Shown: positions 1-29,809 of the stretch, piece after piece
Position numbering within the stretch: position 1 is the stretch's first letter
Layout of the letters: each line of letters starts with the position of its first letter
From: a virus
IMG/VR virus record: IMGVR_UViG_3300027741_000001
Direction: 5' to 3' (one strand)
Length of the DNA stretch: 64,000 nt
Position numbers and translations under genes: made by a program
The notes under the pieces: generated by a model
Databases searched by the model: none
What the model was told of the DNA's origin: nothing
What the model saw: the letters and a program-made list of their open reading frames with translations, nothing else

Positions 1-1
1 C

Positions 2-3000
2 AGCTTCTTCAAAGCAACCAAAACCTGTGCCGGGAATAGAAAGTACCTGCTCAACAGGAATAATAGTTCCCATAAACATTCCGGCTCTTTCTTGCAACCT
101 ACTAGTAGCAAAGTTGAAAGCATCACCGTGAAGCCAGGCCCAAGCTGACATAGGTCTTTGCAATATTTCAGCATCTCCTATGCCATTATACTCAATACCG
201 GTATCTATTTTAAAAGCTTCTTCGTCTACTCCAGTACCTCTGTAAAGAGTTAAGTATTTTATTCCATAGTTTTTAAATCGATCCTGGGTAAGATCGTACA
301 TAGTTTTTAAGAAATCTTTAAGAACAGAACTGTGGATTCCATAGTAGTATTCTGCATTTTCTAAAATATCTTTTGTATACTGGGCGTTTTTACTTTGAAC
401 TTTCCATGGGGCCCACGAACCAGCAGGCATTTTAAATGTCTCAGCAGCAGCAATCTGTAAAGCGTGAGATAGCATATCACTACCATTAGATGTCTCTGCC
501 CACTGCGCAACAAGTATTGAAGCGGCTTTTTCTTTAAATGCCTCTATGTCTTCCGGATTGTCAAAGAAAATTGGTTTTTTATTTTCATTTGCATAGTAAT
601 CGTCAAAAAGAGTTTTATAGTCAATAGTTTTTTCATCGTAAGGGTTTCCGTACAGTTCTTCATCGTAAGGATCCATGAAATCTAGTACTTCTCTTAGAGT
701 TTCTATATGTAATCCTTCATATGGAGAGTGCTCAGAGTCATCAATAAATAATATAATAGAATTTCCATTTAAATTATCCGATTTACTATCTAAAGCTTTT
801 AGAGCCATCTTTTGACTATCTAGATAACTCAACCTAGATCTGACTACCTGACTGATAGATATGGCATGATCCAATGCTCCCAAAATATCTTTGGGAGAGG
901 ATAACATATTATTACCTATATTTTTAGCGGCAATCTCTTTTAATTGCTCAGAGGCTCCGCCCATATGTCCAATTGAGCTATCTATATCAAAAGCATCCGG
1001 ATCGTACCACGTAGCAATCTCATTAAGTCCAGTCTCTTCATTCTCAGCCATAAGCTCATTTAAAAGATCAGACTGTATTTTAAGTACGTCTGTAAATCCA
1101 GGTACATCCTTTGGATCCAAATTGATTCTAGGGTATAAAAGATCTTCGTCATTAAATAGGTGGTATGGATTTATAAGTGATCCATCCTTAACATTCTTGA
1201 AGTTTTCTAGACTTCCATCCTTATTTAGAACTACATCTCCGACTCCTCCGGATCTTTCCATTGTAGTTGGATTTTTAAAGTCCACAGTGCTAACGCCAAC
1301 TACAACAGGCACATACTCTCTTCCAGCTATACGTGCAGCTTCAACCCTATGATTTCCTTCTGCAATAAAAGCTCTTCCAGTAAGAGGGTTGTACCAAACT
1401 AGTACCGGCTCTAAGTAGCCAGTTCCGTCTTCGAGGTCATGGGCTATAGAAGATGTACTGCTCTCCATATCTGCAAGATTGCCTTTCATTGTGGCAAGCT
1501 TTTCAGTTCTAACATAACCCAGTGGATTACCGCCATTACCTATTCCATATATTTTTACACCTTTGCCAGTCCATTCAGTAAGGTCTAGGTCTGGGTCATT
1601 CTTGTCTCTATAGGAGTTATTTAGAGGAATTACTTCAAGATATTTATTAAGAATAGTAGGCTCTTCAACATTTTCTCTATTTTGATTAGGTCCATAGTCA
1701 ATTTCATCGCCATCAAGCTTAGGCTCTTCTACAGGAAGACCCTTCTCCTTAAGAAGATCAATCTGTAGTTGCTTAGATTCTAAAGAATCGTGTACGTCTG
1801 GTTTTCCAGCATCCACCGAGTTAGAAAAAGCTTTACCGTACATGGTAAGAGTGCTTGAGTGGTTAACAGGTTTACTGTAGTGCTTACGAGCTACATACAA
1901 CATTGCTGTTGCAAGACCGCGGCGTCTATATTCATCATTGGTAAGTACTAAACCAATTTTAGCAGCAGCATTAGGATCTTTTTTGTCATCATCATCTACT
2001 CTTAATGAAGCTATATGAAGAAATTTTCCACCAAATGTATCTACATTTTCCATACCCTCAGGTGTAAAGTTGGGTGCTAAGAATCTACCTTCAAGATCAT
2101 GTACGGTTACCAGTACACTTTTATCGCTACTGCTGTCAGTGTTTATGTCAGTAAGGATCATATATTTTCTACCGTACTTATCAATAAATTTATCTGTGTA
2201 ACGGACAAACCCAGTAAACTTTTTAGGTTTAGATTTACCTAGAGTAACTTGATCAGCGATGGTTTCCATATTTGTTTTAGAATCTGGGTTAGCTACAGTT
2301 GTGAATTTAGTGTACTCAAATCTCCTAGAAATTTTAGCTGCACGTATTTTTGAGTCATCTCCCGAAGCTATGGCATCTTCTACATTTTTATTTTCCCAGT
2401 CCATGATTTTTTGCTGTTTTGCATTAAATGGAGTGCCGTCGGGCAGCTGAGTGTAATCATAATTATAGATAGTATCTAGATCAAGAGTACGATCATTAGG
2501 ATCAAAAGGCTCAGGCGGATACTGGTTCTCACGGTTTTGAGAAGGTTGATTATTAGATAGAGTAACCTTTGATTCATCATTTCTATGAAGATCAGGGTTA
2601 GGGTCAACTGAAAGAGAGAATGCTCTACCAAAAGAGGTTAACATTTCTGAGTGCTGGACTTCTTTTCCAGAACGCTCTCTTGCTAAGTGAAGAGCTGCAG
2701 TAGCTAGACCTCTTCTTACATATCTATCTGAAGTGTAGACCATGCTAATTTTGTTATTAAAGACATCTAATGAAGACACAGGAGTTCTATCTTCTGAATT
2801 ATCTTGAAGATCTTGTAGGGAGTTTTTACTCTTATCGTAAAGCTTTACGTTTGACATGCCGAGGCCGTTTACTACCTTGGTAACTACCCAGTACTGTCTG
2901 CCGTACTTGTCAGTAAACTCATCAATATACTGAGTACTCTGCTTGTACTCTGGTGGTAGATCTGCATAAGGTTTACCGGCACCGCTGTAGTTCATTCTAG

Positions 3001-6000
3001 AAGTATTGTCATCTAGAAGTCCCACCTGATCTTTAATACTTTCAAGATTAGTGCCAGACTTTAAGTTTGGTTTAGCGGTGTATCCCTGATAGATACGTCT
3101 TCTTTCAGCAATACGCAGTTTTCTTTCAAAATCATCAGGTTCATTGTCAATCGCATCTTTAAGAATATCCATTTGTTGCTGTTGATAAACATTGAATGGG
3201 GTACCATCAGGCATTTGAGTATAATCGTAGTTGTAATACTTCTCTAAATCAATAGTGGGATCTGTAGGATCAAAAGGTTCTTTCTTGGCTTTGTTTCTCT
3301 TGAAAAATCCTTCACGGTTTTGAGATGGTGCATTGTCTTCCTGTAGTTTTATAGACTTCTCGTTATTGTGCAGATCAGGCTTACCAGGGTCAATGCTGTT
3401 AGAGAAAGCAAATCCCATGCTAGAAAGATTATCTGAGTGAATTACTGGAAGTCCTAATCTCTTTTCTAGAACAGCAACCAATGCTGTTGCTATGCCTCTT
3501 CTTTGGTATCTATCGGTAACCATTACACTTTGGATTTCAGACACAGATGGGTCTCTAAATATGTAGGAATCGAGTCCTCCGACATCATTAATTCCAGACA
3601 CAGGTTGATCTTTTCTTACATAATCTTCAGGTAGAGGCATACCTTCAAAGTTTTTTTGGTCGTAGGCTACTACAGTCTGACGTCCAGAGCTTTCGTCTAT
3701 GTTAGTAACTATGTAGTATTTTCTACCATATTTATCGGTAAACTTATCCACATATCTTGTGTAAGTTAGTCCACGAGCTTCATCAAAATACTTTACAGCT
3801 GGCTTATCGCTAAACTCTACCTGTTTAAGAATGCTATCTCTTGTAGTAGAAGAGCCTTTGGTAGGCTTAGCAATTATTTGCTGATATAAAGTTCTTCTAA
3901 AGTTTTTTAAATTCTTTACAGCAAAAGAGTTAGCATCTTCATCATTATTTTTAAGAATGTTTTCTAATCTTTTAGCTATTGCATCCATCTGCTGCTGCTG
4001 ATCACTATTAAAAGGAGTGCCATCAGGCATCTTGGTATAGTCATAGTTGTAATACTCATCTAAATCTGCTTTTTTATCTCTAGGATCAAAAGGCTCTGGA
4101 AGGTACTTAGACTCTTCTTCCTTAGGAGCAGACTCTATTTTTTCAAAGTGCTTGTCAGCAGCTGGCCATAGATTGCGTAGCATTTCTTCAGGCATACCTT
4201 GAGCAGTAGGCTTAGTCATAAAGTCTGAGAGCTGGTCTCTACTAGTGAACATTCTCAAGAAATCGTCAACGTTGGTAGAAAGATCCCAGCTGCTCTGTTT
4301 AATCCAATCTGCATTTTCATCGCTGTTATCGATGTTTATAGGTTTTTCAGCACGTTCTCTATTTTGAGAAGGCTTGCTTTGTTCTTGAATTACTGTCTGT
4401 CCGCTTACTGGATCGTTAGATACAATTTGATTTCTTTCGGCTTCTTCTTTAATTGCCGCTTCTAGATCGCTATTATCTCTATTTCCAGGATATGAGTGAT
4501 ATGAGAACAAAGCTTCTTTTATGTCCCCGCCTAAAACAACAACTTCACGTTCATCCATAGATCCAAACCCAGATCCAGAAAATGATATAACTTTATCGGC
4601 CGGAACTATTGTAGCCATAACTACTGCATTTTTACCTGGCGAGTTCATTGCAAAACTCTCTGCTTTATATCTATTAGTTGACCATGAAGATAGTGGCCTC
4701 TGCTGTACAGTGCCTGAAAATACTCCAGTAGACCCTAAATTATTATAAATTTCATTTAGTTCTGTAGAGTCAGATCCCCTATACACAATAAACCCATCAA
4801 TACCCTGATCCTTCAGCAGATCTTGAGTAGCGTTATACATTGCATGTAAGAACTGTGTATAAATAAGTCTGTGATCTTTAACTTCTTGATCAACCTGATC
4901 TTCATAGTGGTTATTTAAATCTATTAAATCTTTTACTTCATTAGGAACGGTTCCCTGCTCCCTATAGATATCTACATTGTATTGATTCATGCCTCTAACA
5001 AAGCTCCACTCGGATGTGGCTTTAGGGTCCATAGCAAATATATCTTTAGCTACTTTTTGCATAGCATGAGATTTTATGTTTTTATCATTAGAAGACAGTG
5101 CCCATGAGTGAATTAAATTAGAAATCATTATTTTCTTCAGATCATTTACATCTTCCTGATTAAAACTTGAATGTACTCTTAAAAACAATTGATCATTTAT
5201 AAACTTTATAATACTGTTTGAATCTGTATTGCCCATTTTTTCTAGAACAGAATTCATAAGTTCTTTATTTACAGTCAATATAGATATAGTTGACAGACTC
5301 TTAACTTCATTAACATTAGTGACTAAAAGTTCTGTATCTTCTTTTATATCGGATAGATCTGCATTAAAAGCGTTGTATATTGATGAAGATGCAGGGCCTG
5401 AAAGACGAGAAAAAAAGGCCTCTTTTGCTATACCGTTGTAGTTCATGTAATGCACATCCATGCGGCTAGATGCATTAAATAGTGGAGAATATCCACCGCT
5501 CATAGCAGCTTTAAGCAAATCATCAAATCTAGCATCTGGCATATACCTAAGAAGTCTTGCAGCTGCAACTTGCTTAAGCAGGATAGATTGAGAAAACTCA
5601 GACGTTGAGCTAAACAGATCGGATATAGAGTCGCTTGCGCTCAGATCGTCTATTTCGCCATTTCTTACAGCATCTTCTACAGCTGAAATATTTGTCTTTT
5701 GAGTAGCTGTAGTGATATTTCTTTCAGCACCCTCACGGTTTTGGTTAGGGTTAGACTTTTCTTTAGCTGATTGAACGTCACCTAGATCACGGATCTTGTC
5801 GTCATAAACGTTACGGATTTGCTCTAGGTCATTGCCACTTGTAGCGGAATCTTCGTAAAGTGAGTTTAGCTTCTTAAGCTCATTGTAAAGTTCTTTAGCT
5901 GCAGCTTTGTAGACGTTCTTGTCTGCACCAGGCTGGTTTCTAAAGTTTTCAATTGCATTTTCAAGATTGTTTTTAAAGGCACTTAGATCATTCTCTAGAT

Positions 6001-9000
6001 TTCCATTGTAAGAAGCATTTTCTATAGCTTCAGGAGCTACCGAAGTTTTAGGTAAAGCTTTACTTCTATTAGAAATAATATTTCTGATCTCATACTCATT
6101 TTGAGTGTGGAATACATTATCTAAGGAATATGACTCTTTAGAGTCGTTGATGTTTACAATTTCAGGATTTTTATTTCCATCAAGCCTGAGTTGATATCCC
6201 CACTCAATAAAGTCTGTTTTATCCCTAAAAGCTGTAGGATTAGGCTTTTTAAATACTTGTAGCGTTATCTTTTTAAGATTTCCATCACTATCAACAACAA
6301 CTAGATCATCTCCCTTGTTGATTATTTTACCGTCGGCACCCCTGTGTATAGGGTTAACCTCGGCACCATTACCTGAAGAGTAATTATCTATATATTTTTC
6401 AAAATTATCTAAATAATCTGTACTAGACATTATCTTTTTAAAAGCTATTTCTAGATCTACATAACGAATAAAGTCATCTATATCTTCAGGGTTTAAAATC
6501 TTTGCTAGCTGATTAACCTTATCGTTTGCATCTTTTTTAGCAGCATCAGGATCTTCAGTTCTTTTACTTCTGTGGATGAAATCATAGACTTTTTTAATAG
6601 CATTGAACAGTCTGTAACCGTCTTCACGAGAGATCTTGTCTGGAGTCTCTTCCGAGGTAGGCTCTTTTACAACTTCTGGCTTAGGCTCAACCGGTTTAGC
6701 CTTAATAGCTTTTTCAATATCTTTTTTGTCTTTAGGGCTAAAAGCATTGAGCTTAGTAAGCATATTGAAGTTATATGTAGTTTCTTTCCCGTTAGGACCT
6801 CTTACGGTTAGCTGAACAACTCTACCTAGAGTATCTTTCTTAACTACAACTCCAAGAGCATAACCATCTGGACCATAGATAGTCCACCCAACGTCTACTT
6901 TTTCTGCTAGATATTGCTTAGCTGTTTCCTTGGTTATTTGAGTTGGGCCAAGATCTTTAGGAGTTTCTACTGAAGTTACAGGAGTCGCGACAGGTTTTTC
7001 CGGCTTCTCTTCAACGGGCTCTTCTGGCTTTTCTTCAGCAGATTTAGCAGTTTCTGCCTCTGCCTTAGCTTTCTCATCCCACTTTCTCTGTACTTCAGCC
7101 ATCTTAGCTTCTTGAACTGGAGCAGTAGCGTCTTCATCCATTTTTGGATCAGTGCTGGTTGGCTTGAAAGCATCGTAGATCATTTTAGGGACGTCAATCA
7201 TGCCGCCTTTTTCATCTACGTAAAGGAAGTACTTAATAGGCCCCCAGATATTTTCTGATTGACCTTTGACAAAGTCGACGTCTTTAAGATTTTGACTCTT
7301 GCGCCTACCAATAGCAAATCTGCTGTAAAGTTCACGGTAGGTCATTACTTCGCCATTCCAGCGAACTTTTTTGTCTAGGTGGGCTTTAATTTTACCTAAT
7401 TGCATTGGAGATAGAGCATCAAAGTCTAGAACTCCGCCAGCGGTCTCAATAACATTTTTCTTAGGCTCTTCTGTAGGCTCAGCTGCTGGCTCTTCTACAA
7501 CTTCAGGCTCATTTACAACTTCTTCAACGTCAGACTCAGAGATGCCATCTTCTACTTCTATATCCCTAAAGAGGTTGTCAAAGTTGAAGTCTAGAGGATC
7601 GGTTGGTTTGCCGGCACCTTCCTTCATACCCTTATTAGTTAGTACATTGAGCTGCTTCATTGCATCGACAAGTTCAGCTATTCTCTTAGCAATAGCTTTT
7701 TTCTCATTTTCATCTGTTGAAGAACTTCTAGTGTTGTTTAAAATATCCTTATAATCGCTAAGTTTTTCATGCAACATTACAACAGGATACGGGCTAAGCT
7801 CTTGCTTCAAACGCTTAGCTTCGCGTTTCATGTTCTTGCCTCGTTTAGCGGCTAGATACTTTCTGTAAAGCTGGCCAACTTCAGTCCAAGCATCTATATT
7901 AGCCTGACGTTCTTCCTCGGTAAGTTCCTTAGGTTCTTCTTCTACCTTAGTTTCGGCTACAGGTTCAGTAGCAGGCTTAACGTTCTGGTTCTCGTCAGAG
8001 TAGCGAGCTAGGCCGGTTATTCCACCAAACTTAGCCAAAAACTCTTCATCATTAACAAAGACATTATCGTAATACCCGCCCTGTGCACGGTTAGGTTCTT
8101 TAATTTCAAAAACTCTATTTCCGTTTTCATCGGTCTTAACGGATACAACTTGTGCATAGAAGTTAGGACTAGTTTCTTCGCTTTTAGTTCCCTTCCATCT
8201 AGTAGTTGGAGGGAAGTGCCCACCATACATTAGGTAGTCGCCAGATTGAATTTGATCTAAAGATTCTAAAGGAATGTATTCGGATGTGTAAGGGTTGTTA
8301 TTTCCACCATTTTCAGCTATTGCATTAGCCACCATTTTTCTGGCTTCTTCTACAGCTTTTTTCCAAACTTCCGGATCATTAATATCTCCTGGAACCTCGG
8401 CATTTCTATAGTCAATAAGTCTACGTCTAGACATATCTTCTCGCCATTTGTTATTTAATAAGCTTATTCTCCAACCAGCAACTCTTCCCTTTTTGTTGTA
8501 GCTATTAGGCTCGATCGCTTCTTCGTAATAGATCTCTGCTCCATAGCGAAGTCCATCTTTTGCACGAACGTCGGGATAGTCTGCTTCGTGCTGGAATCCT
8601 TCTCCATTTATTACATATTTAGCGTAAGGTTCTCCCGCACCTGCGGGGAACATTTGAACATCATCCGGTAGAGGGAAGTTATGCTCGCCAGTTATTTCTT
8701 TTGATTCGGTTGTAGGAGTGGTTTCTTCTTCAACAGGCTGTTCTTTTTCATCCTCATCATTTAATTTAAAGAATTTAAAACCATACTTATTTTCTAGTTC
8801 TTTTTCATTATCAAGTCTTCTTTGAAGTTCTTCTTTAGCTAGATTTTCATCTTTATAAGCATCTATCATATCCCCAATGTGCGCTGCACTTCTTTCAGAT
8901 GACCCTAGCATAATTTCATATTCGCCCCAGTTAGTTTGCTTAACAAAGTATTTTCCAACTAGATCTTTAAACTCAGGATCCATATCACCCTCTAGACCAA

Positions 9001-12000
9001 CATCTAGAGTTACTTTTTCTATTTTTCCGCGATTAATTAGATATATAGTATCTCCACGCTTTGGCTTATGGCCATCAGCTGTAACACCTTCAGTAGCATC
9101 TCTACGTGCAGGATCTTTCCAAATCTGATATTGCTGAGCTAACCACTGCTTAGCTTTTGCTATAAGTTCAGGATCTTTATAGTACCCATAAAGATCTGCC
9201 CCTCTCCAATAACCGTCTTTGTCTTGGAATTTTACAGAGATGTGATCTCTAGGGTAGTCAGTACTTCCCCAGTATCTAATCTCTCCCCAGAATTCAGCAC
9301 CTTTCTTTGGAACTGCCATATTTCCGCTACCATTGCGAGGCCTAGCCATATTCCAACCAAGAGCAATTTGACCATACTTATCTTTTTCCCAGTCAGCTGC
9401 AACATCTTGTAGATCTACAAAACTGTCATCAATTTTTTCTGGCTCGTTGGCAGGAGTAGGTGCGGCAGCTGGAGCATTTATGTTTCTATATCTCTTAGCA
9501 AGTTCAACGTAAGATTGATTTATAAGATTCTCTAGAGCTGACTTGTCATTCTCATCGCCATCAACTTCAAAAGTTGCAACTACGTTACCCTTTGGATCTA
9601 GAATGGTGGCGGTCCACTTACCATCCTTGTTAGATATGACAGCTCCAAATGGAGGTTTTTTCAGCCGATCTATTTTTTCAGTTTTAGCTGCTTTCCATTT
9701 TCCAGTCTTAGGATCTTTTAGAGCTCTCCAAATGTAGTCATCTCCAACTTTTCTAAAGAAGTGCGGGAATGTGCCTGGAAGTTCACCGTTGTTATATTCT
9801 TCATTTCTTCTTGCAAGAGCTTTTGTAGCGAACTCAAATGCTTTTCTAAAAGTTTCTTCCTCGCTACGTTCTAATTCAAAATCTAATAATTCTGCAGGAC
9901 CGTAACCATCTCCATCGATGGTGCCGTCCCAGTTTCGCCACTGAATTTCTGTGTATTTTTGATCTAGAGATCCATCAGCTTTTCTTGTAAAAGTAATCTT
10001 TATACGAGCCCCTGGAGCGCTAAAGTCTTTGTTGTGCCAAATAACTACTGCTTTTTTACCAGCAGCAAATTTTGAAGGATCTTCGTAAGGTAATGCACCT
10101 TCTTCTCCTTCTTCGCCATCCTCTTCGCGGTTTTGAGAAGGCTTGTCGCGGTTGTCTTGCTCTTCGATCTCAAAGCCCTTTTCAATAAGCTTTTTCTCGT
10201 CGATTTCAGCAGGGAATTCTGGCTTAGGATGTACCATCGGCACATAGCCTTTTTCTGCATAGCCCTTAGGGTCAATCTTTCCCTTGCCGATAGGGTCTTC
10301 TCTTGTTACTTCTGGTTCTGGAGTTTCGGTAGATTCTTTTTTACCAAGGTTAGCGTCAATAATGTCTTGTACAGCTTTAACAACTTCATCCCAGTTTCCT
10401 CTTAGGCTACTTCCTTCACGTTTTTCGACATGCTTGATTTCACCAGGTTTTAGATTTTTATCTAAAAGGTCTAGAAGTTCTTCGTAATCAATACCTTCTT
10501 TTCTTCCATAACCATGCACATCCAGGTATGGAGCTAAGATATCTTTTATAAGACCTCCCACTACATCGGTTTTTTCACCTAGTGGGTCTACAGCTTCAAT
10601 TCTTTCTTTTAAAAGTTCTTTTATGCGATCAAGAGCATCGAGTTGTCTTTTCCTGTAACCTGGATCTAAGAATTCTTTTACTTCATCTAAAACTTGCTTT
10701 AATTTATCTGAATACATGCCTTCATGTACTGCTCCAAGGTTTTCTTTTAGATGCCTAATTAGTCCTTTATAATCTTTAATGTCTAGCTTTATAATTTCTT
10801 GTACAATTTCATACGCCTCTTGAGCGATTTGATCAGCCCTTTGCTTTGGATCCTGATTAGGATCAATTCTTTTGCCAAGGTTTATTGCTATCCTAAGGAC
10901 AGCTTCAATGATTGATTCATAAAGAAGTTTTCTTTCTGGACCGTATATTTCAGTAGTAGATTCAGCTGGGGTCTTGACTCCATTTAAGAAGTCTTTTGCA
11001 TGAGCAATTATGGAATACTGGTCACCGTTTCCAGGCAAAATCTTCTCATTTAAATACTCCGCTAATCTCTGATATTTAGATACAGGTACGCCTAAATTAT
11101 GAATTTCTTCAATAATTTCATCAACTTCAAGTCGTATTTTATCCTCAAGTTCAAGGTCAAAATCCTCCCAGCGGCCACTAGATTTATATAAAGCATTACG
11201 GATCGCGGCCCTCAATAAAATAATAAAAACTTCATCAAATGAATCGTTATTTCTGCGTCTACCTCCACCACCACCGCCGCCATTACCGCCACGTCCACCT
11301 CTACCGCCGCCGTTACCTTCTCCGCCTCTGTTGTTACCATTGCCACTACCCTCTCCACCCTGATTCTCATTTTCAGGTGTAGGTGCAGGAACGTTTGACT
11401 TAGAAGAAGTTAGTACTTTTTTGAAGGTTCCAACTGGAACAACTTCGTGCTTGACTTCACCGTCTTTGCCTACATAAACAACAACTCGGTCACTAGACTT
11501 TTTAACATCAGGAACGCCGATGCCATGCTCAAAAACGTTTACAACGTTAGCTGGGCCATCCGGACTTTCGTAAACCATTCCAGGTTTGAGATCTTCAGCC
11601 TTTACTGCATCTGCGTTAGAAGAATCAAGTTTTCCTGGCAAAGGATAAATAAAGTCTGGACCGTCGCCAGGTACAAAGTTAGCTCCTGCTTTAGTAACAT
11701 AAATTATTCCATTTTTGTGTACAACATACTCATCTAAACCTTTTGGAAATACATCTCCAGGTTTATAATCTTTACCTTCTACCCAGTAGTGCCAGTTCCC
11801 GTGTCTATCTTGACGTATTACTACAACTTTACCGTGAAGATTTCCATCCTTGTCATATACAATATCTCCAGGTTTGACATCTTCAGGCTTCTTTACATCT
11901 GGAGTTCTAGCTTTTCCGCCTCGTGGAGTAGTAGTTTTTTTACCTTTACCTTTTTCTTCTTTTTTAGGGGGGTTTACTCTTTCAGAGTTTGCAGTCCAAT

Positions 12001-14914
12001 GGATCGGTTCTCCGTGGATGTAAGGCTCAATTGCAACTTTCCAGAATTGGCCAATATTAGGTAGAATGCTATCCTCTCTATTGTGAAATGCAATAAGAGC
12101 TGCTGCAAATAATTCAGCCATTCTTTCATCAAATGCATTAGGATTTATTTTTGGATCTAAATCTGCATTTGGGGTAACTGCAAATCTCTTGAATGGTTTA
12201 GCATCTGTACCCCAGAACATCTTTTTAAGGTCTCCCCAAAGAGGAGAGTTAACCAGTTTTCCATGCTTTTCTCTATTCCAGAGGTGACCTAGCTCGTGAA
12301 AGAATACGTGCTGAAGTGCAGGAACAAATCCTCCAGGATTTTGACCGTAATATTCTTCTTGTCCCTGCTCATTTATTCCTTTGAAGAGTCTTCTTTTGTC
12401 AGCTTTATCCAGATTATGCAATTGATCCCAAAGAATCAAGTGCATAGTACCATCAGGTTCGGTGTGAGACTCCCCGGTTAAGCATCCAAGCTCGGGGTGG
12501 TCCTTATCAAAACCAATGACTTCACCCTCAGTAAAAGCTGGATCTCCTTGCTTAGCAATTTTAATTCTTACAGGGAGTTTAAATCCAAGCTTTCTTGCAG
12601 TATCTAGGTATCCTTTAAGTTCATCTAGAAGTTGACCATTTATGTCAGACTGCTTGTCAAATTCAATAGTAAATTCTCCATAGCGAAGTATGACTTTTTC
12701 ACCGATACCCTGTAAATTCTTATAAGTAGCAGCTGCAATAGCATATTCTTTTTCATTTATATCGGTTCTGCCTTCTGGATCTTTAAGACGTGTACCTTTA
12801 CGAGACTCTCTAAGAGCTTTCCAAAATAGTTTTACAAAATCGTCTAAGTTCCCAGCAGACTCGTACATATCTTTATACCAGGAAGGGTATCTCTCCCAAG
12901 AATCGATACGATCGTAGCCAACCGGAATATATTGCTTAGGCTTTTTTGTAAACTTTTTCTTTAAAAAGTACCCTCCAGCTTTAAGTTTAGCTAAAAATTC
13001 CAATTCTTTTTTGTTAGGTACGCCATTGCCCTCACCTAGCTCACCGCCACCGCCTCCACCACCGATTCTAAATTGGTTAGGAGTGTTGTTAGTTCTATCT
13101 TTATTGGTGTTTAGCCGAGCTAGAACCTCTGCAGCTTTACCTCTGGTAGTTGCTTCATTAACAGCTTTTTTAGCTTCGGCAGCAATCTCTTGATTTTCTG
13201 AGCCAGCAAGTTCATTGAGAGCATTTAGTTGGGCTTCAGTAACTGGATTATTTCCAGATATAGAGTTTTTAAACGCAGCCATACGTTCTTGGTAAAGCTT
13301 TTGCATTTCCGGAAAATTCAATAGACGCATATCTTGATTGTCTTCAGCAGCAGCTCTATCGACAATCTTTGAGACTAGGTTGAATGAATCTTCCGCATCT
13401 CCATCAGCTGAGTGCCAGTTAGCAGGTTCAAAACCTAAGAAGTTTGCAACTGGGCCAAGGCTGGAGCTGGCTCTTACTTCGCCAGTCTTGCGATCTGGAG
13501 CCTTAGGACCGTCAGTGCCTTTTTCTGGATCGTACTTAGGCAGAAGTGAGGCAAGATCTTTTGAGTCAACGGTTCCGGCAATGTTTAACTTGATACCTGA
13601 ATCATCAGCCATACGCTGTAAAATCTCTAGATCAAATGGAACGTTCTGTCCACCAAGAATAGCATTAGGACCTATAAACTCTAAGAACTGTTTAAGAGCT
13701 TCTTCAGGACTCATTTGCTCTTGAAGCCATTCTGGAGTTACAGCAGTGGTTACAGGCTTTCCGTTTTCATCTCTAACAATATTGCCATCCCCATCTACAA
13801 CATCTCTCTTTAAGTTATTTGCAGACCATTCGGAAAGTTTGCTTCCAGGATTGATGTAAACGTTAAAACGCTTTATAACTTTTCCATTCTTAACTTGAAC
13901 TGCTCCAAGTTGAATAGGATCATTTTTGATACCCTGGCCGTCATAATCAGAGATACCAGTAGTCTCAAAATCAAAGTATGTTATTACCTGAGATTTTAGA
14001 CGTTCTGCAACTTGCTTCCAGTTCTTTGCACCAGCAAGAATTTTTTGCAAAACTCCAGTGAAAGCACCGGGGGTAGGTAGGCGTGCACCATTAGCGTCCA
14101 TAGTTGCTGATTGTAGATCAATTCCCAAATCAGCAATTGAAGATCCTTCTCTATTTTGAGCAGGCGCAGCTTCAGGAGTAGGCTTAGCTTCATCTTTGCC
14201 GATCCATGCTTGAATAGGGTGGTCAGCGGGGACGTTCATAATTGCACGACGTCCATTTTGGAACTGAATAAATATTTGCTTAGTGCCGTCAGCTAAAGTC
14301 TTAACATTGGTAATTTTTCCATACTGATCAGAACCTTGATCGTAAACAATATTTCCAGCAGCTAGATCTTTACCAGTAAGCGCAGTTGCGGTTTTCTTAG
14401 CAGCTTCTTCCTTGTAGTTTTCTGGATCTGGAAGATCGGCTTCGGCATCTTTAAGATCTTGTGGAGTCGGATCTTCTATCTTAAGAGTGTCTTCATCTTG
14501 AATGCCACCGTCTCCAACTTCATACCCTTCAGTATTTTTCCCTAACTCAATTCCACGCTTTTTTAAATATTCAGGGTCTAGTGTTGCAAGTACTTCTTCA
14601 GCATTATTGTATTTAATGTATAGAACTTTGCCAGCAAAATTAGGATCGCTAGGGTCAACTAAAACTCTTGCAAATTTACCATCTGGAGTTGCACCAATAA
14701 ATTTACCAATAACGCGGGCAGTTCTACCTGCATCATTTCCTCTTTTTTTACCTAAACGAACTTTAGCTTTAATACCGCGACCCATTTCAACCCAGCGACC
14801 AAATTTGTCACGGAACTGAGTTAGAACCTCGGCACGGCGTTCGGCAGAGGTATACTCACCGTCTCCGTCTCCGAAGCCGTCAGCTACTATAGGTTTTAGG
14901 TAGTCAAAATCCAC
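2..14914 (-). CDS. Giant polyvalent (putative internal virion) protein 2, >4970 aa, 3' end beyond the window: DEDDh exonuclease, zincin protease, SH3-like repeats, 2x ART, 3x GNAT, ParB-like
   Basis: Not in the ORF track. GTG at 14914 overlaps the TAG of the upstream gene and gives MDFDYLKPIVADG...QFRDKFGRWVEMG. Motifs read manually in this one frame: YFDFETTG (~13955-13978), HELGH (~12284-12298), VYRG/SSWS/DERE (~4790-4544), YxRRG[IL]ATA x3 (~3500, ~2715, ~1915), EGNHR (~1346-1360), LYRG/SAWA/EEA (~247-2). Spot checks found no in-frame stop, and the track lists no long internal minus-strand ORF here. Confidence 0.9.
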   Translation of the reverse strand, partial: MDFDYLKPIVADGFGDGDGEYTSAERRAEVLTQFRDKFGRWVEMGRGIKAKVRLGKKRGNDAGRTARVIGKFIGATPDGKFARVLVDPSDPNFAGKVLYIKYNNAEEVLATLDPEYLKKRGIELGKNTEGYEVGDGGIQDEDTLKIEDPTPQDLKDAEADLPDPENYKEEAAKKTATALTGKDLAAGNIVYDQGSDQYGKITNVKTLADGTKQIFIQFQNGRRAIMNVPADHPIQAWIGKDEAKPTPEAAPAQNREGSSIADLGIDLQSATMDANGARLPTPGAFTGVLQKILAGAKNWKQVAERLKSQVITYFDFETTGISDYDGQGIKNDPIQLGAVQVKNGKVIKRFNVYINPGSKLSEWSANNLKRDVVDGDGNIVRDENGKPVTTAVTPEWLQEQMSPEEALKQFLEFIGPNAILGGQNVPFDLEILQRMADDSGIKLNIAGTVDSKDLASLLPKYDPEKGTDGPKAPDRKTGEVRASSSLGPVANFLGFEPANWHSADGDAEDSFNLVSKIVDRAAAEDNQDMRLLNFPEMQKLYQERMAAFKNSISGNNPVTEAQLNALNELAGSENQEIAAEAKKAVNEATTRGKAAEVLARLNTNKDRTNNTPNQFRIGGGGGGGELGEGNGVPNKKELEFLAKLKAGGYFLKKKFTKKPKQYIPVGYDRIDSWERYPSWYKDMYESAGNLDDFVKLFWKALRESRKGTRLKDPEGRTDINEKEYAIAAATYKNLQGIGEKVILRYGEFTIEFDKQSDINGQLLDELKGYLDTARKLGFKLPVRIKIAKQGDPAFTEGEVIGFDKDHPELGCLTGESHTEPDGTMHLILWDQLHNLDKADKRRLFKGINEQGQEEYYGQNPGGFVPALQHVFFHELGHLWNREKHGKLVNSPLWGDLKKMFWGTDAKPFKRFAVTPNADLDPKINPNAFDERMAELFAAALIAFHNREDSILPNIGQFWKVAIEPYIHGEPIHWTANSERVNPPKKEEKGKGKKTTTPRGGKARTPDVKKPEDVKPGDIVYDKDGNLHGKVVVIRQDRHGNWHYWVEGKDYKPGDVFPKGLDEYVVHKNGIIYVTKAGANFVPGDGPDFIYPLPGKLDSSNADAVKAEDLKPGMVYESPDGPANVVNVFEHGIGVPDVKKSSDRVVVYVGKDGEVKHEVVPVGTFKKVLTSSKSNVPAPTPENENQGGEGSGNGNNRGGEGNGGGRGGRGGNGGGGGGGRRRNNDSFDEVFIILLRAAIRNALYKSSGRWEDFDLELEDKIRLEVDEIIEEIHNLGVPVSKYQRLAEYLNEKILPGNGDQYSIIAHAKDFLNGVKTPAESTTEIYGPERKLLYESIIEAVLRIAINLGKRIDPNQDPKQRADQIAQEAYEIVQEIIKLDIKDYKGLIRHLKENLGAVHEGMYSDKLKQVLDEVKEFLDPGYRKRQLDALDRIKELLKERIEAVDPLGEKTDVVGGLIKDILAPYLDVHGYGRKEGIDYEELLDLLDKNLKPGEIKHVEKREGSSLRGNWDEVVKAVQDIIDANLGKKESTETPEPEVTREDPIGKGKIDPKGYAEKGYVPMVHPKPEFPAEIDEKKLIEKGFEIEEQDNRDKPSQNREEDGEEGEEGALPYEDPSKFAAGKKAVVIWHNKDFSAPGARIKITFTRKADGSLDQKYTEIQWRNWDGTIDGDGYGPAELLDFELERSEEETFRKAFEFATKALARRNEEYNNGELPGTFPHFFRKVGDDYIWRALKDPKTGKWKAAKTEKIDRLKKPPFGAVISNKDGKWTATILDPKGNVVATFEVDGDENDKSALENLINQSYVELAKRYRNINAPAAAPTPANEPEKIDDSFVDLQDVAADWEKDKYGQIALGWNMARPRNGSGNMAVPKKGAEFWGEIRYWGSTDYPRDHISVKFQDKDGYWRGADLYGYYKDPELIAKAKQWLAQQYQIWKDPARRDATEGVTADGHKPKRGDTIYLINRGKIEKVTLDVGLEGDMDPEFKDLVGKYFVKQTNWGEYEIMLGSSERSAAHIGDMIDAYKDENLAKEELQRRLDNEKELENKYGFKFFKLNDEDEKEQPVEEETTPTTESKEITGEHNFPLPDDVQMFPAGAGEPYAKYVINGEGFQHEADYPDVRAKDGLRYGAEIYYEEAIEPNSYNKKGRVAGWRISLLNNKWREDMSRRRLIDYRNAEVPGDINDPEVWKKAVEEARKMVANAIAENGGNNNPYTSEYIPLESLDQIQSGDYLMYGGHFPPTTRWKGTKSEETSPNFYAQVVSVKTDENGNRVFEIKEPNRAQGGYYDNVFVNDEEFLAKFGGITGLARYSDENQNVKPATEPVAETKVEEEPKELTEEERQANIDAWTEVGQLYRKYLAAKRGKNMKREAKRLKQELSPYPVVMLHEKLSDYKDILNNTRSSSTDENEKKAIAKRIAELVDAMKQLNVLTNKGMKEGAGKPTDPLDFNFDNLFRDIEVEDGISESDVEEVVNEPEVVEEPAAEPTEEPKKNVIETAGGVLDFDALSPMQLGKIKAHLDKKVRWNGEVMTYRELYSRFAIGRRKSQNLKDVDFVKGQSENIWGPIKYFLYVDEKGGMIDVPKMIYDAFKPTSTDPKMDEDATAPVQEAKMAEVQRKWDEKAKAEAETAKSAEEKPEEPVEEKPEKPVATPVTSVETPKDLGPTQITKETAKQYLAEKVDVGWTIYGPDGYALGVVVKKDTLGRVVQLTVRGPNGKETTYNFNMLTKLNAFSPKDKKDIEKAIKAKPVEPKPEVVKEPTSEETPDKISREDGYRLFNAIKKVYDFIHRSKRTEDPDAAKKDANDKVNQLAKILNPEDIDDFIRYVDLEIAFKKIMSSTDYLDNFEKYIDNYSSGNGAEVNPIHRGADGKIINKGDDLVVVDSDGNLKKITLQVFKKPNPTAFRDKTDFIEWGYQLRLDGNKNPEIVNINDSKESYSLDNVFHTQNEYEIRNIISNRSKALPKTSVAPEAIENASYNGNLENDLSAFKNNLENAIENFRNQPGADKNVYKAAAKELYNELKKLNSLYEDSATSGNDLEQIRNVYDDKIRDLGDVQSAKEKSNPNQNREGAERNITTATQKTNISAVEDAVRNGEIDDLSASDSISDLFSSTSEFSQSILLKQVAAARLLRYMPDARFDDLLKAAMSGGYSPLFNASSRMDVHYMNYNGIAKEAFFSRLSGPASSSIYNAFNADLSDIKEDTELLVTNVNEVKSLSTISILTVNKELMNSVLEKMGNTDSNSIIKFINDQLFLRVHSSFNQEDVNDLKKIMISNLIHSWALSSNDKNIKSHAMQKVAKDIFAMDPKATSEWSFVRGMNQYNVDIYREQGTVPNEVKDLIDLNNHYEDQVDQEVKDHRLIYTQFLHAMYNATQDLLKDQGIDGFIVYRGSDSTELNEIYNNLGSTGVFSGTVQQRPLSSWSTNRYKAESFAMNSPGKNAVVMATIVPADKVISFSGSGFGSMDEREVVVLGGDIKEALFSYHSYPGNRDNSDLEAAIKEEAERNQIVSNDPVSGQTVIQEQSKPSQNRERAEKPINIDNSDENADWIKQSSWDLSTNVDDFLRMFTSRDQLSDFMTKPTAQGMPEEMLRNLWPAADKHFEKIESAPKEEESKYLPEPFDPRDKKADLDEYYNYDYTKMPDGTPFNSDQQQQMDAIAKRLENILKNNDEDANSFAVKNLKNFRRTLYQQIIAKPTKGSSTTRDSILKQVEFSDKPAVKYFDEARGLTYTRYVDKFTDKYGRKYYIVTNIDESSGRQTVVAYDQKNFEGMPLPEDYVRKDQPVSGINDVGGLDSYIFRDPSVSEIQSVMVTDRYQRRGIATALVAVLEKRLGLPVIHSDNLSSMGFAFSNSIDPGKPDLHNNEKSIKLQEDNAPSQNREGFFKRNKAKKEPFDPTDPTIDLEKYYNYDYTQMPDGTPFNVYQQQQMDILKDAIDNEPDDFERKLRIAERRRIYQGYTAKPNLKSGTNLESIKDQVGLLDDNTSRMNYSGAGKPYADLPPEYKQSTQYIDEFTDKYGRQYWVVTKVVNGLGMSNVKLYDKSKNSLQDLQDNSEDRTPVSSLDVFNNKISMVYTSDRYVRRGLATAALHLARERSGKEVQHSEMLTSFGRAFSLSVDPNPDLHRNDESKVTLSNNQPSQNRENQYPPEPFDPNDRTLDLDTIYNYDYTQLPDGTPFNAKQQKIMDWENKNVEDAIASGDDSKIRAAKISRRFEYTKFTTVANPDSKTNMETIADQVTLGKSKPKKFTGFVRYTDKFIDKYGRKYMILTDINTDSSSDKSVLVTVHDLEGRFLAPNFTPEGMENVDTFGGKFLHIASLRVDDDDKKDPNAAAKIGLVLTNDEYRRRGLATAMLYVARKHYSKPVNHSSTLTMYGKAFSNSVDAGKPDVHDSLESKQLQIDLLKEKGLPVEEPKLDGDEIDYGPNQNRENVEEPTILNKYLEVIPLNNSYRDKNDPDLDLTEWTGKGVKIYGIGNGGNPLGYVRTEKLATMKGNLADMESSTSSIAHDLEDGTGYLEPVLVWYNPLTGRAFIAEGNHRVEAARIAGREYVPVVVGVSTVDFKNPTTMERSGGVGDVVLNKDGSLENFKNVKDGSLINPYHLFNDEDLLYPRINLDPKDVPGFTDVLKIQSDLLNELMAENEETGLNEIATWYDPDAFDIDSSIGHMGGASEQLKEIAAKNIGNNMLSSPKDILGALDHAISISQVVRSRLSYLDSQKMALKALDSKSDNLNGNSIILFIDDSEHSPYEGLHIETLREVLDFMDPYDEELYGNPYDEKTIDYKTLFDDYYANENKKPIFFDNPEDIEAFKEKAASILVAQWAETSNGSDMLSHALQIAAAETFKMPAGSWAPWKVQSKNAQYTKDILENAEYYYGIHSSVLKDFLKTMYDLTQDRFKNYGIKYLTLYRGTGVDEEAFKIDTGIEYNGIGDAEILQRPMSAWAWLHGDAFNFATSRLQERAGMFMGTIIPVEQVLSIPGTGFGCFEEA

Positions 14915-15117
14915 TATTCTCCGCCATCCTTAAGGATGTCTACCCCGATTAAACGTTGCAGCTCCTCATTGGCGGCTTTAGAGCCTTCTAAAGTTAGGTT
15001 TACTAGTTGCTCGATTGAAAGAGATGAGTATGGCACTTTTTTAACAACGTGCTCATCATTTCTATAAGACTCTACGGTAAGCATAGGCTCGGCCTTAGAC
15101 TTTTTATTTTCGTCCAT
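14914..15117 (-). CDS. Small hypothetical protein, translationally coupled to giant ORF 2
   Basis: ORF track; TAG/GTG overlap; AGGA upstream. Confidence 0.75.
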   Translation of the reverse strand: MDENKKSKAEPMLTVESYRNDEHVVKKVPYSSLSIEQLVNLTLEGSKAANEELQRLIGVDILKDGGE

Positions 15118-15134
15118 TTATATATCCTACGTAG

Positions 15135-15287
15135 TTATTCTGACGGAGTGTTTTTAGGAGTAGGCTCTGCTACATCCTCTTCACCACTATCATATAGGAA
15201 ATCTGGATCGGGGTTTGGGAAAGAGATAGCAGTCCAATACTCTTCATCTTCAGGAGTATAGTGATCAGGGTTTAAATAATTTTCCAT
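15135..15287 (-). CDS. 50-aa acidic hypothetical protein (MENYLNPDHY...)
   Basis: Manual translation; GAGGAG RBS and TGGTATACT -10-like element upstream. Confidence 0.65.
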   Translation of the reverse strand: MENYLNPDHYTPEDEEYWTAISFPNPDPDFLYDSGEEDVAEPTPKNTPSE

Positions 15288-15355: not shown

Positions 15356-18300
15356 TTAACCACCAAGAAGTGCTTTAAGTTGATTAAGAATATTGACTCT
15401 ATCCTCAGGATCAGCTAGACTAATGCTCCAGTTGTTTGCTTTTCTATCCCAGAAGAATGAGAATGGGATCTTCTTATCTTTAGGTACTAGTGAAACACTC
15501 TTGATTAGATCTTTAGCAGCCATAGTATCACCCATCAGGAAGATTCTATTACCTTCGATTCGATAGTTGACACCGCCTCCAAGACCTCCAGAAGATCCAT
15601 CTTCACCAGTTACTGGCTCAATTGGCATGGAGGTAGCTCCAGGCTGATTAGTTGGATCATACTCTTCATCTGGGTTATCTTCATAGTAGCCAGCTAGGAT
15701 GTAGTCAACTGCCTTGCTTGCCATAGAAGCGGCCTCAAACAAAGCGTTTGGCTCTGTTTCCAAGAATCTCTTCCAAGACTGAACATAAGCAGCCACGTTT
15801 TCAATACTGGTGTTGATCCCAAACATAGAAGCTAAAATAGCTGCTCCAATTTCTGCAATAAGTTCTTCACGAGCACGGACATCCTTGTGCTTACCGTAGT
15901 TATCTAGAAGATCTTTACGATCTAGACGCTGAGGGTCTCCAGTACTGTGGACCAGCTCGTGGAACAAAGTATCTAGGTGCTCTTCAGTGCTATTGAACTG
16001 TTCTCTTAGAGGCAAGCTGACTGTGTCCGTCTGAGGTGACCAGAAAGCTGAGTCTCCAGGGGCATATTGGATGTTAGGCCCGCCTGTGTAGGAAGCAAGG
16101 ATGATATCCTCTACCTCGTGCATAGGAGGTGGGTCTTTTCTAGGAAGTGGTGGAATAGTAATACCCTTAACCACATCTTCGTTATAGACAACATCAATGT
16201 CGAGTCTAGTCTTGGTTCTAGAACCATCATCCGGCTTCTGGTCACCAGTCTTTGGGTCAATGATAGTTTTGGTCTCATCTGGCTTTACAGTGTACTTACT
16301 CTTCACAACCTTGGTTATAAGCACGCCATCGTTTTCGTCTACGTAGCCACCAAGCTTAGCAATAGCGTTCTTTGTATACCAGCGAGTACCTTTGTAGCCT
16401 CTGAATTGGCTTAGAACTTCTAGAATAACTAGGTTTCCACCCTTGTAGTTCTTACCAGTAGCGCCTGATGTAGGTAGGTAAGATCCACCGCCAGTCCAAG
16501 GCTTCTTCCAAGGAATAATTCCCTTATCCATAGCCTCGGTAATTTGAGCCATAACCTGATCTACAGCATCTTTATTGCTCTTTATAGGTTTGCTATTTTC
16601 GCGGTTTTGAGAAGGACCGTTGTCTTCTAGGTCTTTCCAACCAAAAATTGCCTCGGAAGCTCCAAAGATTCCAGATTTATTTGCCACTTCAGAGACCTTC
16701 ACGAACTTGTCACCATTTTCGTCAGTGTAAAGTTCTACTCTCTTATTTGGCAAAGCTGATCTGAGTTGAGCCACGTACTCTTCCGGATCTAGTCCATTAG
16801 GAATAGGGTCAAGAACAGGAGTCTCGATCTCGGCTGTCATTCTTTCAGCAGCGTGAACTGCCTCTGTGAGTTCCTTTAGACCGCGTTCTCCGCCAGGATA
16901 TTGAGGATCTCTAGAGATAGGCTCAAGAGACATCTGGTAATCGTACTCAGCTTGAATAGCTTCGTCATAGGCTGCATTAATCTCTTCTTCAGACATTACT
17001 GGCTGCTCAGATGCAGATTTATTAGGAGTTGAATCTGAATCTGATTCAATAGCTTTTGCAACTATATCTAAGCTAGACTCTTTGACGTTTTCTGGATCTG
17101 ACTTAGCATCTATGCTATTATCCCCTTGGAAAATAGTAGTTCCGTTTTTACGAACTTGGATAGCATCATTAGAGATAGTAGCTTCATACTTGCCATCAGG
17201 AGAACTCCAAGTGTGCTTGTAGTCATTTCCTTCAGGTCCACCTAGATATTCGGTATTCCAGTTAGCAGTGTAGTCATACTTACTGTCAGGGTTGGTAGCA
17301 CCTTCACGGTTTTGAGACGGGCCTCCGATAACCTTTTTAGCCTGCTGGCCATTAACATATGATGCACCGCCACCGCCATCAATAGCTTCAAAGAATACGC
17401 TAACTTCATCGGAATCGTGACGACTTATCATCTTGATTCTCTTGTTTCCCTTAGCAGTAACTACAGTGTCACCCTTTTGTAGAGTATTAGGGTCTACTTC
17501 TACAATTTCAGGTCCTGAGCTTTCAGTATTCTGTGAAGTAGGTTGATCAGGGCTCTTATCAGACCTAGCTTCTAGCTGGCGTAGGTAATCCTTACGCTTT
17601 GACTTGAATTCTTCTATCTTACCATCTAGCCAATCCAACATTCCAGGATCTAATTCATCCATAGTTCTAGTTACAGCAACGTACATAAGGTTCAATGCTT
17701 CTGTAGTAAGAGATCTAGGCATATTGCCCTTCTCGATAGCGTCAGCATCTTTTTGTGGGTTAGGCTTGAACCATGTTCCTGAAAGTTTAACTTGTTTAGC
17801 TTCTAGTCCCTTGGCTCGGTGAGCAGTTAGAACTACGCTGTCGACATCTGCACCACTTAGAGCGTCTACAAGAGCGCTTAGTTGCTCAGATCCATTTCCT
17901 TGAACAGGAGTGGTCCAGTCCCAAGTCTTACCTGTATCCCATGTGTATCCCATTGAAGATAGAGTGTCAGAGTTATTCTTAGTTCCATTATTTGGATTCT
18001 TTAGCTCAGGTGTCCAAGGCTTTGCATCACCAGTATTGTAGAGACGGATAGCCCCATTTTCAATCTTGTAGCTAATGAAGTTTCCAAGATCTCCTTCGTC
18101 GCCCCAGTTGCCATCCGAAGGCTTTTTGAATCCTTGAATACCAATGATTCTTGCACCATCTACTGTCCGCTTTAGTTCAGCAAATACTGCCTTGCCATCG
18201 TTATCTCTTTCTTGCTCTTCTAGACGAGCTTGAGTCAGCTCCATAATGCCTAGCAATCTTCCTACTGCTGGATCAGAATCTTCTTGGTGAAGTTCAAGCA

Positions 18301-29247: not shown

Positions 29248-29446
29248 GGATCTAGTGTATCATCTTTTCGTCCTAAGTTTACGTACTTTATTTAAAAATG
29301 ATACCTTTACTTTTTTTGACTTTGGCCTGCGATCTGGCAGTAGGTATATTTCGTCTTGTCCAAAATTGTTTCCAGCTTCGAACATCTGTTCGAAAAAAAG
29401 ATCTTTTTTCGTTATCAAGTTGTTATCTAAATTAGGGGGTTCTAAT

Positions 29447-29498
29447 TTGCTATCTACCTAAAAACTGATACTCTTTTATTAGTTAGGTAATTGCCTAA
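29447..29498 (+). promoter_or_regulatory. Early promoter + TAGTTAGGTAA..GCCTAA hairpin cassette
   Basis: TTGCTA...TACTCT, then the conserved hairpin and a GAAAGG RBS. Confidence 0.65.
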
Positions 29499-29788: not shown

Positions 29789-29809
29789 GCAACAAGCCTA
29801 ACCCTGACT

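Follow-up and report, generated by a model that had tools for sequence, protein, structure and literature searches.

The locus described here lies in a 64,000-nucleotide stretch of viral DNA (IMG/VR record IMGVR_UViG_3300027741_000001; hereafter the window), in which two minus-strand genes for very large proteins, called giants A and B below, are embedded in a phage head gene module. The window corresponds to bases 32014-96013 of the 113,694-bp record (genome G000), and the sole difference between the two in 64,000 bases is at 58846-58847 (TC vs CA). Along the minus strand, the order of genes is large terminase, portal, a ferritin/Dps-like protein with DUF5824, giant B, two small open reading frames (ORFs), giant A, a 124-amino-acid (aa) ORF, a 1506-aa protein with a protease core, and the major capsid protein. 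Both giants carry a short peptide linker that recurs between their enzyme modules, and this linker, together with the segments that it delimits, is the main subject of the analysis.

Giant A is a single uninterrupted gene

The earlier note had read this end of the window as one minus-strand frame starting at GTG 14914 and leaving the window, and the translation bears this out, positions 2..14914 forming a single open frame of 4971 aa that begins with GTG and is free of stops up to the window edge. In the whole record, the frame extends 3.1 kb past the window to a stop at genome position 28871 (window position -3142), which gives a complete protein of 6018 aa and 676 kDa. This start codon overlaps the TAG stop of a 67-aa ORF upstream by one G (TAGTG) and is preceded by GGAG at a distance of ~7 nt, so that a start translationally coupled to this ORF is plausible. 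The gene is also uninterrupted in three related IMG/VR genomes (G001-G003), where the protein has 6251, ~5978, and ~6845 aa, two of these genomes being complete (135 and 137.5 kb, with terminal repeats), and a collection of 5.8 billion proteins holds eight giant-A-type proteins of 5729-6848 aa from independent assemblies. In-frame stops that would split the frame into several genes occur neither here nor in seven other assemblies, and because the same uninterrupted frame is present in eight independent assemblies, both an assembly artefact and a set of separate genes were rejected. Substitutions relative to G001 and G002 are most frequent at codon position 3, then position 1, then position 2 in all ten segments of giant A, including the 1464-aa segment A3, for which no domain is known; the one exception is A9 versus G001, where position 2 slightly exceeds position 1 on few differences. 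The gene is indeed missing from the ORF track, as had been remarked, but this is an artefact of listing: giant A seemed hidden because the default ORF list omits frames that leave the window, and its relatives have already been gene-called, the Joint Genome Institute (JGI) holding such proteins under the name "DNA polymerase III epsilon subunit-like protein".

A lineage-specific linker peptide punctuates both giants

In the six-frame translation of the whole 113.7-kb record, the word QNRE occurs 13 times against 0.72 expected (0.07 expected from the composition of the giants themselves). All 13 copies lie in giants A and B and have the form P-[SNA]-Q-N-R-E, and giant B holds one PSQNRV in addition. 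A strict back-translated pattern gave 10, 9, and 11 matches in G000, G001, and G002, all within the giants, and zero matches in reversed-pattern controls. The flanks of the linkers are poor in hydrophobic residues (0.21-0.23 vs 0.29, P ~0.01), and the segment ends have a predicted local distance difference test score (pLDDT) <50 in both AlphaFold2 (AF2) models, those of A1 and A8.

The linker is rewritten as a set between lineages. In a sister lineage (G003, 72% identical in the first segment), G-P-S-P-K-E-E stands at every equivalent joint of both giants, amounting to 19 sites with no QNR. More distant lineages of the family have codes of their own, again confined to giants, namely DEM[AS]D (seven copies), QEMA[TS] (seven copies), and GFxQGxR (12 copies), and the copies of DEM[AS]D directly precede the same "EPFDP" GNAT cassettes. 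An unbiased scan of the family found at least five spaced copies of a word in 14 of 116 giants, with a maximum of four in shuffles.

Codon use differs among the copies of the linker (CCT, CCA, or CCG for Pro; TCN or AGY for Ser; CGN or AGR for Arg), and therefore it is the peptide that is conserved, not a DNA repeat. This bears on the possibility that the linkers are by-products of DNA-level events, such as gene conversion or microhomology-mediated shuffling of cassettes, and have no reader at the protein level. Such an origin would agree with the exchange breakpoints described below, which fall at linkers, and with the similar 18-nt word present at several sites, but gene conversion would have erased the synonymous differences seen here (Ser TCN vs AGY, Arg CGN vs AGR), and all sites in both genes have been changed to another peptide in the sister lineage. 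Since synonymous codons differ between sites, a repeat of the DNA and gene conversion were both rejected as the source of the linkers, and the DNA-level reading as a whole, disfavoured by the codon data, is very improbable. That all sites in two genes were switched and are kept at the peptide level implies one specific, co-evolving reader.

Segments behave as exchangeable cassettes

Cutting at the linkers yields ten segments in giant A and six in giant B (Table 1). A5, A6, and A7 are 37-40% identical in pairwise comparisons (E 1e-45 to 7e-52), and the C-terminal domain of A4 recurs in A8 (31% identity). In G003, an additional linker sets the DEDDh exonuclease apart as a 363-aa cassette, and the same genome has four GNAT cassettes, an extra cassette resembling ADP-ribosyltransferases (ART-like), and a solo ParB-like cassette of 179 aa. 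G003 also holds a mini-segment of 31 aa between two GPSPKEE-type linkers (L017:14511-14603, +), which is either what is left of a lost cassette or a peptide that is set free.

A case of exchange comes from the comparison of G000 with G001, which are 97-100% identical through NPNQNRE at the A3/A4 joint, drop to 13% identity at once, and recover within ~10 residues past SQNRE at the A4/A5 joint. A4 is 36% identical to its G001 counterpart, and the flanking segments are at least 95% identical; with the breakpoints of identity at the two linkers, one cassette, A4, has therefore been exchanged. The shared linker at the end of every cassette allows duplication, swapping, and addition in frame.

Domain content of the segments

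The assignments of DEDDh exonucleases in A2 and B3 are firm (for A2, Pfam RNase_T E 5e-11, PHROG 192 E 9e-18, and the NCBIfam DEDD/PolC exonuclease), as are those of a UvrD-type helicase in B4, of ArdC-N with MPTase-PolyVal in B6 (Pfam MPTase-PolyVal E 4e-29, ArdcN E 3e-17), and of GNAT acetyltransferases in A5-A7 (Pfam Acetyltransf_1 E 2.6e-7 on the whole of giant A). A ParB/sulfiredoxin (Srx)-like domain is assigned to A8 with moderate confidence from a PHROG ParB-like match (E 4e-4), the precomputed Pfam ParBc on the homologs P0009 and P0010, and the conserved GNHRVEAAR; the AF2 model of A8 is poor (pLDDT 56), and its Foldseek matches to Spo0J, ParB, and Srx are weak (probability 0.66-0.80, E >0.1). 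Zincin-like sites are predicted in A2, A9, and A10, also with moderate confidence. Their HExxH motifs (HELGH in A2, HEIAH in A9, HEVWH in A10) are invariant even at 48-55% local identity, with ~0.1 expected by chance, and the HELGH of A2 is conserved in G001-G003; these calls are motif-based, plus one weak match to M78 (E 0.0017).

The ART-like domains of A4 and A8 are putative, at the level of motifs. The pattern YRG..RPxSxW..ExE is invariant in nine cassettes that are 23-58% identical to the first, its R-S-E motifs follow the canonical order, and their spacing resembles that in the classical ART units of P0147. In a single hhalign comparison of the ART-like cassettes with these units, STS and ExE were in register (P 0.013), and an atlas search with an ART-like cassette returned DRAT at 0.90, at rank 27. 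Neither Pfam nor a PDB search with a 9-sequence profile gave a significant match for A4/A8, hhalign against T4 Alt gave a probability of 0.2, and the ART-like part of A8 (model pLDDT ~50) had no Foldseek match. A homolog search for the ART domain, matched for length, turned up one protein only. P0147 itself (a family member of 2322 aa; L025:6001-12969, +) carries six YRG..ExE units in a row, four of them Pfam ADPrib_exo_Tox/ART and two of the divergent type found here, and is followed by two small ORFs and then by a giant of >3699 aa. A bridge from A4 and A8 to ART through P0147 was tried and failed, its two regions homologous to the A4/A8 cassettes being unrecognised by Pfam.

For A3, there was no significant match in Pfam, PHROG, or NCBIfam, the atlas search was blank, and phmmer found close relatives only, with no homolog beyond the close clade. 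PDB searches with single sequences of A4, A8, and A9+A10 gave no matches, and NCBIfam on the segments gave nothing beyond the DEDD exonuclease. In B3, the stretch before the DEDDh domain (giant B aa ~783-1318, ~530 aa; window 19613-22708, -) contains repeated helical units; by phmmer, the first 344 residues of this stretch have matches in ten other giants of the family.

The two giants share a head module that defines a large family

By BLASTP, giants A and B are homologous at exactly two modules, the DEDDh exonuclease (A282-521 vs B1319-1543, 36% identity, E 5e-37) and a module with the motif Q[FL]RDxxGRW[VI]EMG (A19-203 vs B202-358, 26% identity, E 4e-7). The motifs that the earlier note had quoted as shared (Q[FL]RDxxGRW[VI]EMG, DFETTGI, KNDPIQ, and NPGS.LS.WS) are all present in both translations. 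Its view of giant A as a paralog of the 3232-aa giant B is right in that the two proteins are homologous, but the homology is restricted to these two modules, and its placing of the shared module at the N-terminus applies to giant A but not to giant B, where the module is found at residues ~200-360, after ~200 other residues.

A profile of the shared module matches 310 representative clusters (135 at E <= 1e-10), mostly proteins of 2000-5400 aa in which the module sits at the extreme N-terminus or at approximately residues 180-410. The payloads across this family are very varied, including PIF1, primase, multiple ARTs, and ArdC-MPTase pairs, and for a 310-cluster family with such different payloads, "expandable scaffold" is therefore a fair description. 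The proposal in the earlier note of an expandable delivery scaffold with swapped payloads thus holds in that QNRE segments have been duplicated, added, and replaced at linkers, but delivery and packaging are predicted solely from gene position and domain content.

The AF2 model of A1 (29-sequence alignment, pLDDT 71) comprises two small SH3-like beta-barrels, of which barrel 1 is Tudor/SH3-like (Z ~6) and barrel 2 resembles domain I of EF-P/eIF5A (Z 9.2, root mean square deviation 1.2 A over 60 aa). As modelled, this tandem SH3-like head module is a binding fold and not an enzyme. The first linker comes directly after the SH3-like module in both giants, and by analogy with T4, the module may serve for capsid targeting or as an adaptor and be taken off with the first cut.

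The head module around the giants

The head-module synteny of the giants is kept in the cultured phages DSL-LC01 and Pumpernickel and in the metagenomic loci L021-L023 and L025. In the cultured relatives, the slot of the giants is filled by a "hypothetical protein" of 3289 aa and 2235 aa. The capsid protein is nearest to that of Actinomycetia phage DSL-LC01 (64% identity), followed by Microbacterium and Arthrobacter phages of 186-195 kb, and the G+C content of ~40% fits freshwater actinobacteria (10.1101/670067). One or two small ORFs likewise lie between the paired giants of L021, L022, and L025. The ferritin/Dps-like neighbour, which has counterparts in the same place in L022 (690 aa), L023 (371 aa), and L025 (181 aa), may bind DNA or handle iron inside the head. 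In the 1506-aa protein, residues 780-1130 contain ~170 invariant positions, including His and Ser, across lineages whose giants share little; this core is 67-77% identical to those of Pumpernickel, DSL-LC01, L021, and L023, whereas the flanks (770 N-terminal and 330 C-terminal residues) are far more variable. The major capsid protein is extended at its N-terminus by ~230 aa; this extension, near-identical in G003, has a coiled-coil-like start followed by a very acidic Pro/Glu/Val-rich tract and looks like a delta-domain or scaffold part.

Table 1. Features of the giant gene pair and its neighbours (window coordinates unless marked as genome coordinates of the whole record)
Feature	Coordinates	Strand	Basis
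Giant A, in-window part, residues 1-4971 of 6018	1..14914	-	Open frame, uninterrupted homologs
A1, aa 1-256, 28 kDa: QxRDxxGRWxEMG stretch, two predicted SH3-like barrels; ends at first linker (AQNRE)	14147..14914	-	AF2, profile search
A2, aa 257-1597, 149 kDa: N-terminal DEDDh 3'-5' exonuclease, Gly-rich spacers, HELGH near aa 873; no further domain assigned	10124..14146	-	Pfam, PHROG, NCBIfam
A3, aa 1598-3061, 166 kDa: no assigned domain	5732..10123	-	Evolves as coding sequence
A4, aa 3062-3520, 51 kDa: helical part and putative ART-like domain (YRG..RPxSxW..GxGFG..ExE); hypervariable	4355..5731	-	Alignment invariants, motif level
A5, A6, A7, aa 3521-4414: tandem paralogous GNAT cassettes, each ending PSQNRE or PNQNRE	1673..4354	-	Pfam Acetyltransf_1
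A8, aa 4415-5044, 70 kDa (aa 4415-4971 in window): ParB/sulfiredoxin-like, helical, second putative ART-like domain	1..1672	-	PHROG, Pfam of homologs
A9, A10, outside window	genome 30638-31795 (A9), 28874-30637 (A10)	-	Zincin-like HExxH motifs
Giant B, 3232 aa, 361 kDa, six segments; four PSQNRE and one PSQNRV linkers	15356..25054	-	Pfam RNase_T, UvrD-helicase, ArdcN, MPTase-PolyVal
Giant B segments: B1, N-terminal extension and SH3-like; B2, no assignment; B3, unassigned part and DEDDh; B4, UvrD-type helicase; B5, acidic, no assignment; B6, ArdC-N and MPTase-PolyVal			
Two small ORFs between giants: 50 aa (15135-15287), 67 aa (14914-15117)	14914..15287	-	Second overlaps giant A GTG
Ferritin/Dps-like and DUF5824 protein, 385 aa, between portal and giants	25072..26229	-	Pfam Ferritin E 1e-14, DUF5824 E 3e-7
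Portal protein, 601 aa	26247..28052	-	PHROG 776 E 1e-100
1506-aa protein with S78-type prohead protease core (about aa 771-1180), outside window	genome 23660-28180	-	PHROG head maturation protease E 8e-56; Pfam Peptidase_S78 weak, E 0.0097 (below gathering score)
Major capsid protein, 682 aa, outside window	genome 21468-23516	-	Head module downstream of giants

Discussion

Judged by domain syntax and context, giants A and B are polyvalent proteins as defined by Iyer, Burroughs, Anand, de Souza, and Aravind in 2017 (PMC5512222), who described proteins of 2-15 domains, predicted their release by peptidases, and drew the analogy to the polyproteins of RNA viruses. Like these proteins, the giants are multidomain, combine unrelated activities, and are encoded beside portal and terminase head genes. 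The polyvalent repertoire includes ArdC-N with MPTase, ART next to GNAT, DdrB-type ParB, SF1 helicases, and nucleases, all proposed to be packaged, injected, and released by peptidases; in the giants, we find domains of disparate activities, the late portal-terminase context, and a zincin-like MPTase as hub domain together with ArdC-N (B6). The giants differ from polyvalent proteins in their ~16-19 cassettes, distributed over a gene pair of up to 6848 + 3351 aa, and in carrying a 6-7-residue linker code that is rewritten per lineage, an SH3-like head module, and exchange at linkers. No cleavage-site motif is given in PMC5512222, and the word "linker" is absent from it.

A second point of comparison is the head cargo of T4 and of giant phages. 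Prohead proteases of the T4 type have their cut site after Glu and strip off targeting propeptides (PMC10052503), and T4 Alt and IPI-III, as well as phiKZ and SPN3US proteins (gp175, gp245), are head cargo, including an ADP-ribosyltransferase, with N-terminal targeting, cut after Glu by the prohead protease and ejected with the DNA. The likeness here is that a prohead protease gene lies in the head module of the giants themselves. On the other hand, T4-type cargo proteins are encoded by separate small genes, whereas here they are concatenated; the T4-type three-residue motif (L/I-x-E or A-x-E) also marks capsid, portal, and protease, whereas the 6-7-residue linker is confined to the giants; and the protease is HK97/S78-like, not T4-like. 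Among actinophages, the Microbacterium cluster EK phages and Burro encode a >4,400-aa protein that is virion-associated (~250 kDa band), "likely processed", and described as the largest among actinophages (Jacobs-Sera et al. 2020, PMC7302621), a size that giants of 6018-6848 aa surpass. That protein is, as here, the product of an actinophage giant gene beside the portal and is divergent between relatives, but EK phages and Burro are podoviruses with no reported linker motif, and the giants described here are 1.4-1.5 times longer; a tblastn search of a phage collection with residues 1-3000 of giant A gave no match in EK phages or in Burro.

The P1 Dar system (DarB, DdrB) and the N4 virion RNA polymerase are also very large head-packaged proteins of antirestriction or takeover, P1 DdrB (ParB + MPTase) being processed before packaging and the N4 polymerase being packaged uncut. 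Unlike the giants, they are single-purpose or have few domains, with neither a repeated linker nor a series of cassettes. Eukaryotic-virus polyproteins, such as those cut by picornavirus 3C, potyvirus NIa, and, in African swine fever virus, pp220 cut by pS273R, have a multi-residue site at each domain border and one co-evolving protease. The giants resemble them in the conserved multi-residue site at their domain borders and differ in having a bacterial host, a dsDNA genome, products that are probably injected effectors and not replication or structural proteins, and candidates only for the cognate protease.

With ~16 enzyme modules strung through one conserved six-residue linker, the giants are most likely a capsid-loaded polyprotein, and we regard as probable that A and B form a pair of polyvalent, capsid-packaged cargo polyproteins that is cut at the linkers by a phage protease. 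The steps inferred for this pair, from packaging through cleavage (with its site and its protease) to injection, are as follows. The giants would be made late, together with the head genes, in an uncultured freshwater (lake) actinophage of ~135 kb, and the N-terminal SH3-like module would probably bring them into the prohead. There, a phage-encoded protease would probably cut the exposed P-[SNA]-Q-N-R-E linkers, perhaps after Glu, and so release ~16 separate proteins. Giant A would give rise to an adaptor, a DEDDh exonuclease, a 166-kDa unassigned block, enzymes of the ART-like (two) and GNAT (three) types, a ParB-like domain, and a pair of zincin-like proteins, and giant B to a UvrD-type helicase, an ArdC-N/MPTase protein, a second DEDDh exonuclease, and unassigned segments. 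The released proteins would then enter the host with the DNA, blunting its defences and taking over the cell.

Several observations weigh against this explanation. For all members of the family, cleavage, packaging, and injection are predictions from sequence. The linker motif, strict or relaxed, occurs 0 times in 11,219 aa of capsid, protease, portal, and other structural proteins, against 13-16 times in 9,250 aa of the giants, and it is likewise absent from the other structural proteins of G001-G003 and L021-L023, so that the usual hallmark of a prohead-protease site is missing. The S78-type core keeps 91% identity between the QNRE and PKEE genomes, and 74-77% in comparison with the DEMAD and GFxQG lineages, and such a conserved protease core sits uneasily with radically different linker specificities. 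An embedded peptidase cassette common to all punctuated lineages was not found, and complete QEMA-class giants of 2960 and 2975 aa, with 6 and 4 linkers, have no HExxH. Finally, most members of the family show no detectable punctuation in the scan of 116 giants, and DSL-LC01 and Pumpernickel, the cultured phages examined, carry none of the QNRE type.

These observations also bear on which protein would read the linkers. Within the polyprotein explanation, one candidate is the S78-type prohead protease carried by the 1506-aa neighbour, which would work within the prohead in the way that T4 gp21 does on Alt and the internal proteins. No other protease occurs in all head operons of the family. 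The last residue of both the QNRE and the PKEE linker is Glu, after which T4-type and giant-phage prohead proteases cut, and the first linker lies directly behind the putative targeting module in both giants. However, the motif is missing, even in relaxed form, from capsid, protease, and portal, the core has barely changed between lineages with different motifs, and the Pfam S78 match is weak (E 0.0097, under the gathering score), making this protease a possible but somewhat unlikely cutter. Alternatively, the giants might be cut, in the capsid or after injection, by the zincin-like peptidases embedded in them (B6 MPTase-PolyVal and the HELGH, HEIAH, and HEVWH sites of A2, A9, and A10). Here, the four HExxH sites are all invariant in divergent relatives, these peptidases evolve fast enough to co-vary with the motif, and release by embedded peptidases has been proposed for polyvalent proteins (Iyer et al., PMC5512222). 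We consider this unlikely, given that no such cassette is common to all punctuated lineages, that the complete QEMA-class giants are without HExxH, and that A2, A9, and A10 are zincin-like by motif, save for the weak M78 match (E 0.0017).

The reader might also be something other than a protease, with the linker acting as a short linear docking motif for a co-evolving partner, such as a chaperone of packaging, the inside of the capsid, or the portal. The giants would then remain uncut, as beads on a string. Concerted rewriting between lineages and selection at the peptide level can be explained by any specific reader, proteolytic or not, a 3500-aa protein is packaged uncut by N4, and the linker is missing from the classical protease substrates. 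Yet the linkers stand strictly at cassette borders and flank the 31-aa mini-segment of G003, the uncut giant would tether disparate enzymes in a 676-kDa chain that has to pass the tail, and the Burro precedent suggests processing; a docking role is therefore decidedly unlikely in our view.

Returning to cleavage, we tentatively extend the polyprotein explanation to a lineage-programmable "cleavage code". Each lineage would have its own joint peptide of 5-7 residues (PSQNRE, GPSPKEE, DEM[AS]D, QEMA[TS], GFxQGxR) read by a dedicated, co-evolving, specific protease, the joints would double as in-frame exchange points, and the giants would be plug-and-play carriers of injected anti-defence enzymes. 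Relative to the literature searched, four features appear to be new: an explicit code of linkers, the concerted way in which lineages have rewritten it, the exchange of cassettes at the joints, and the conserved SH3-like head module. Whereas the release of polyvalent proteins by peptidases was predicted in 2017 without known cut sites, the joints are here written in the sequence, and because they are readable and rewritten in concert between lineages, the polyprotein hypothesis becomes directly testable. The arrangement points to a very specific pair of protease and site, potentially useful as a tool. The linkers also define the product borders of ~16 candidates for early-injected effectors in phages that infect the most abundant bacteria of fresh water, and they show a way for a phage to enlarge and reshuffle its injected arsenal in frame.

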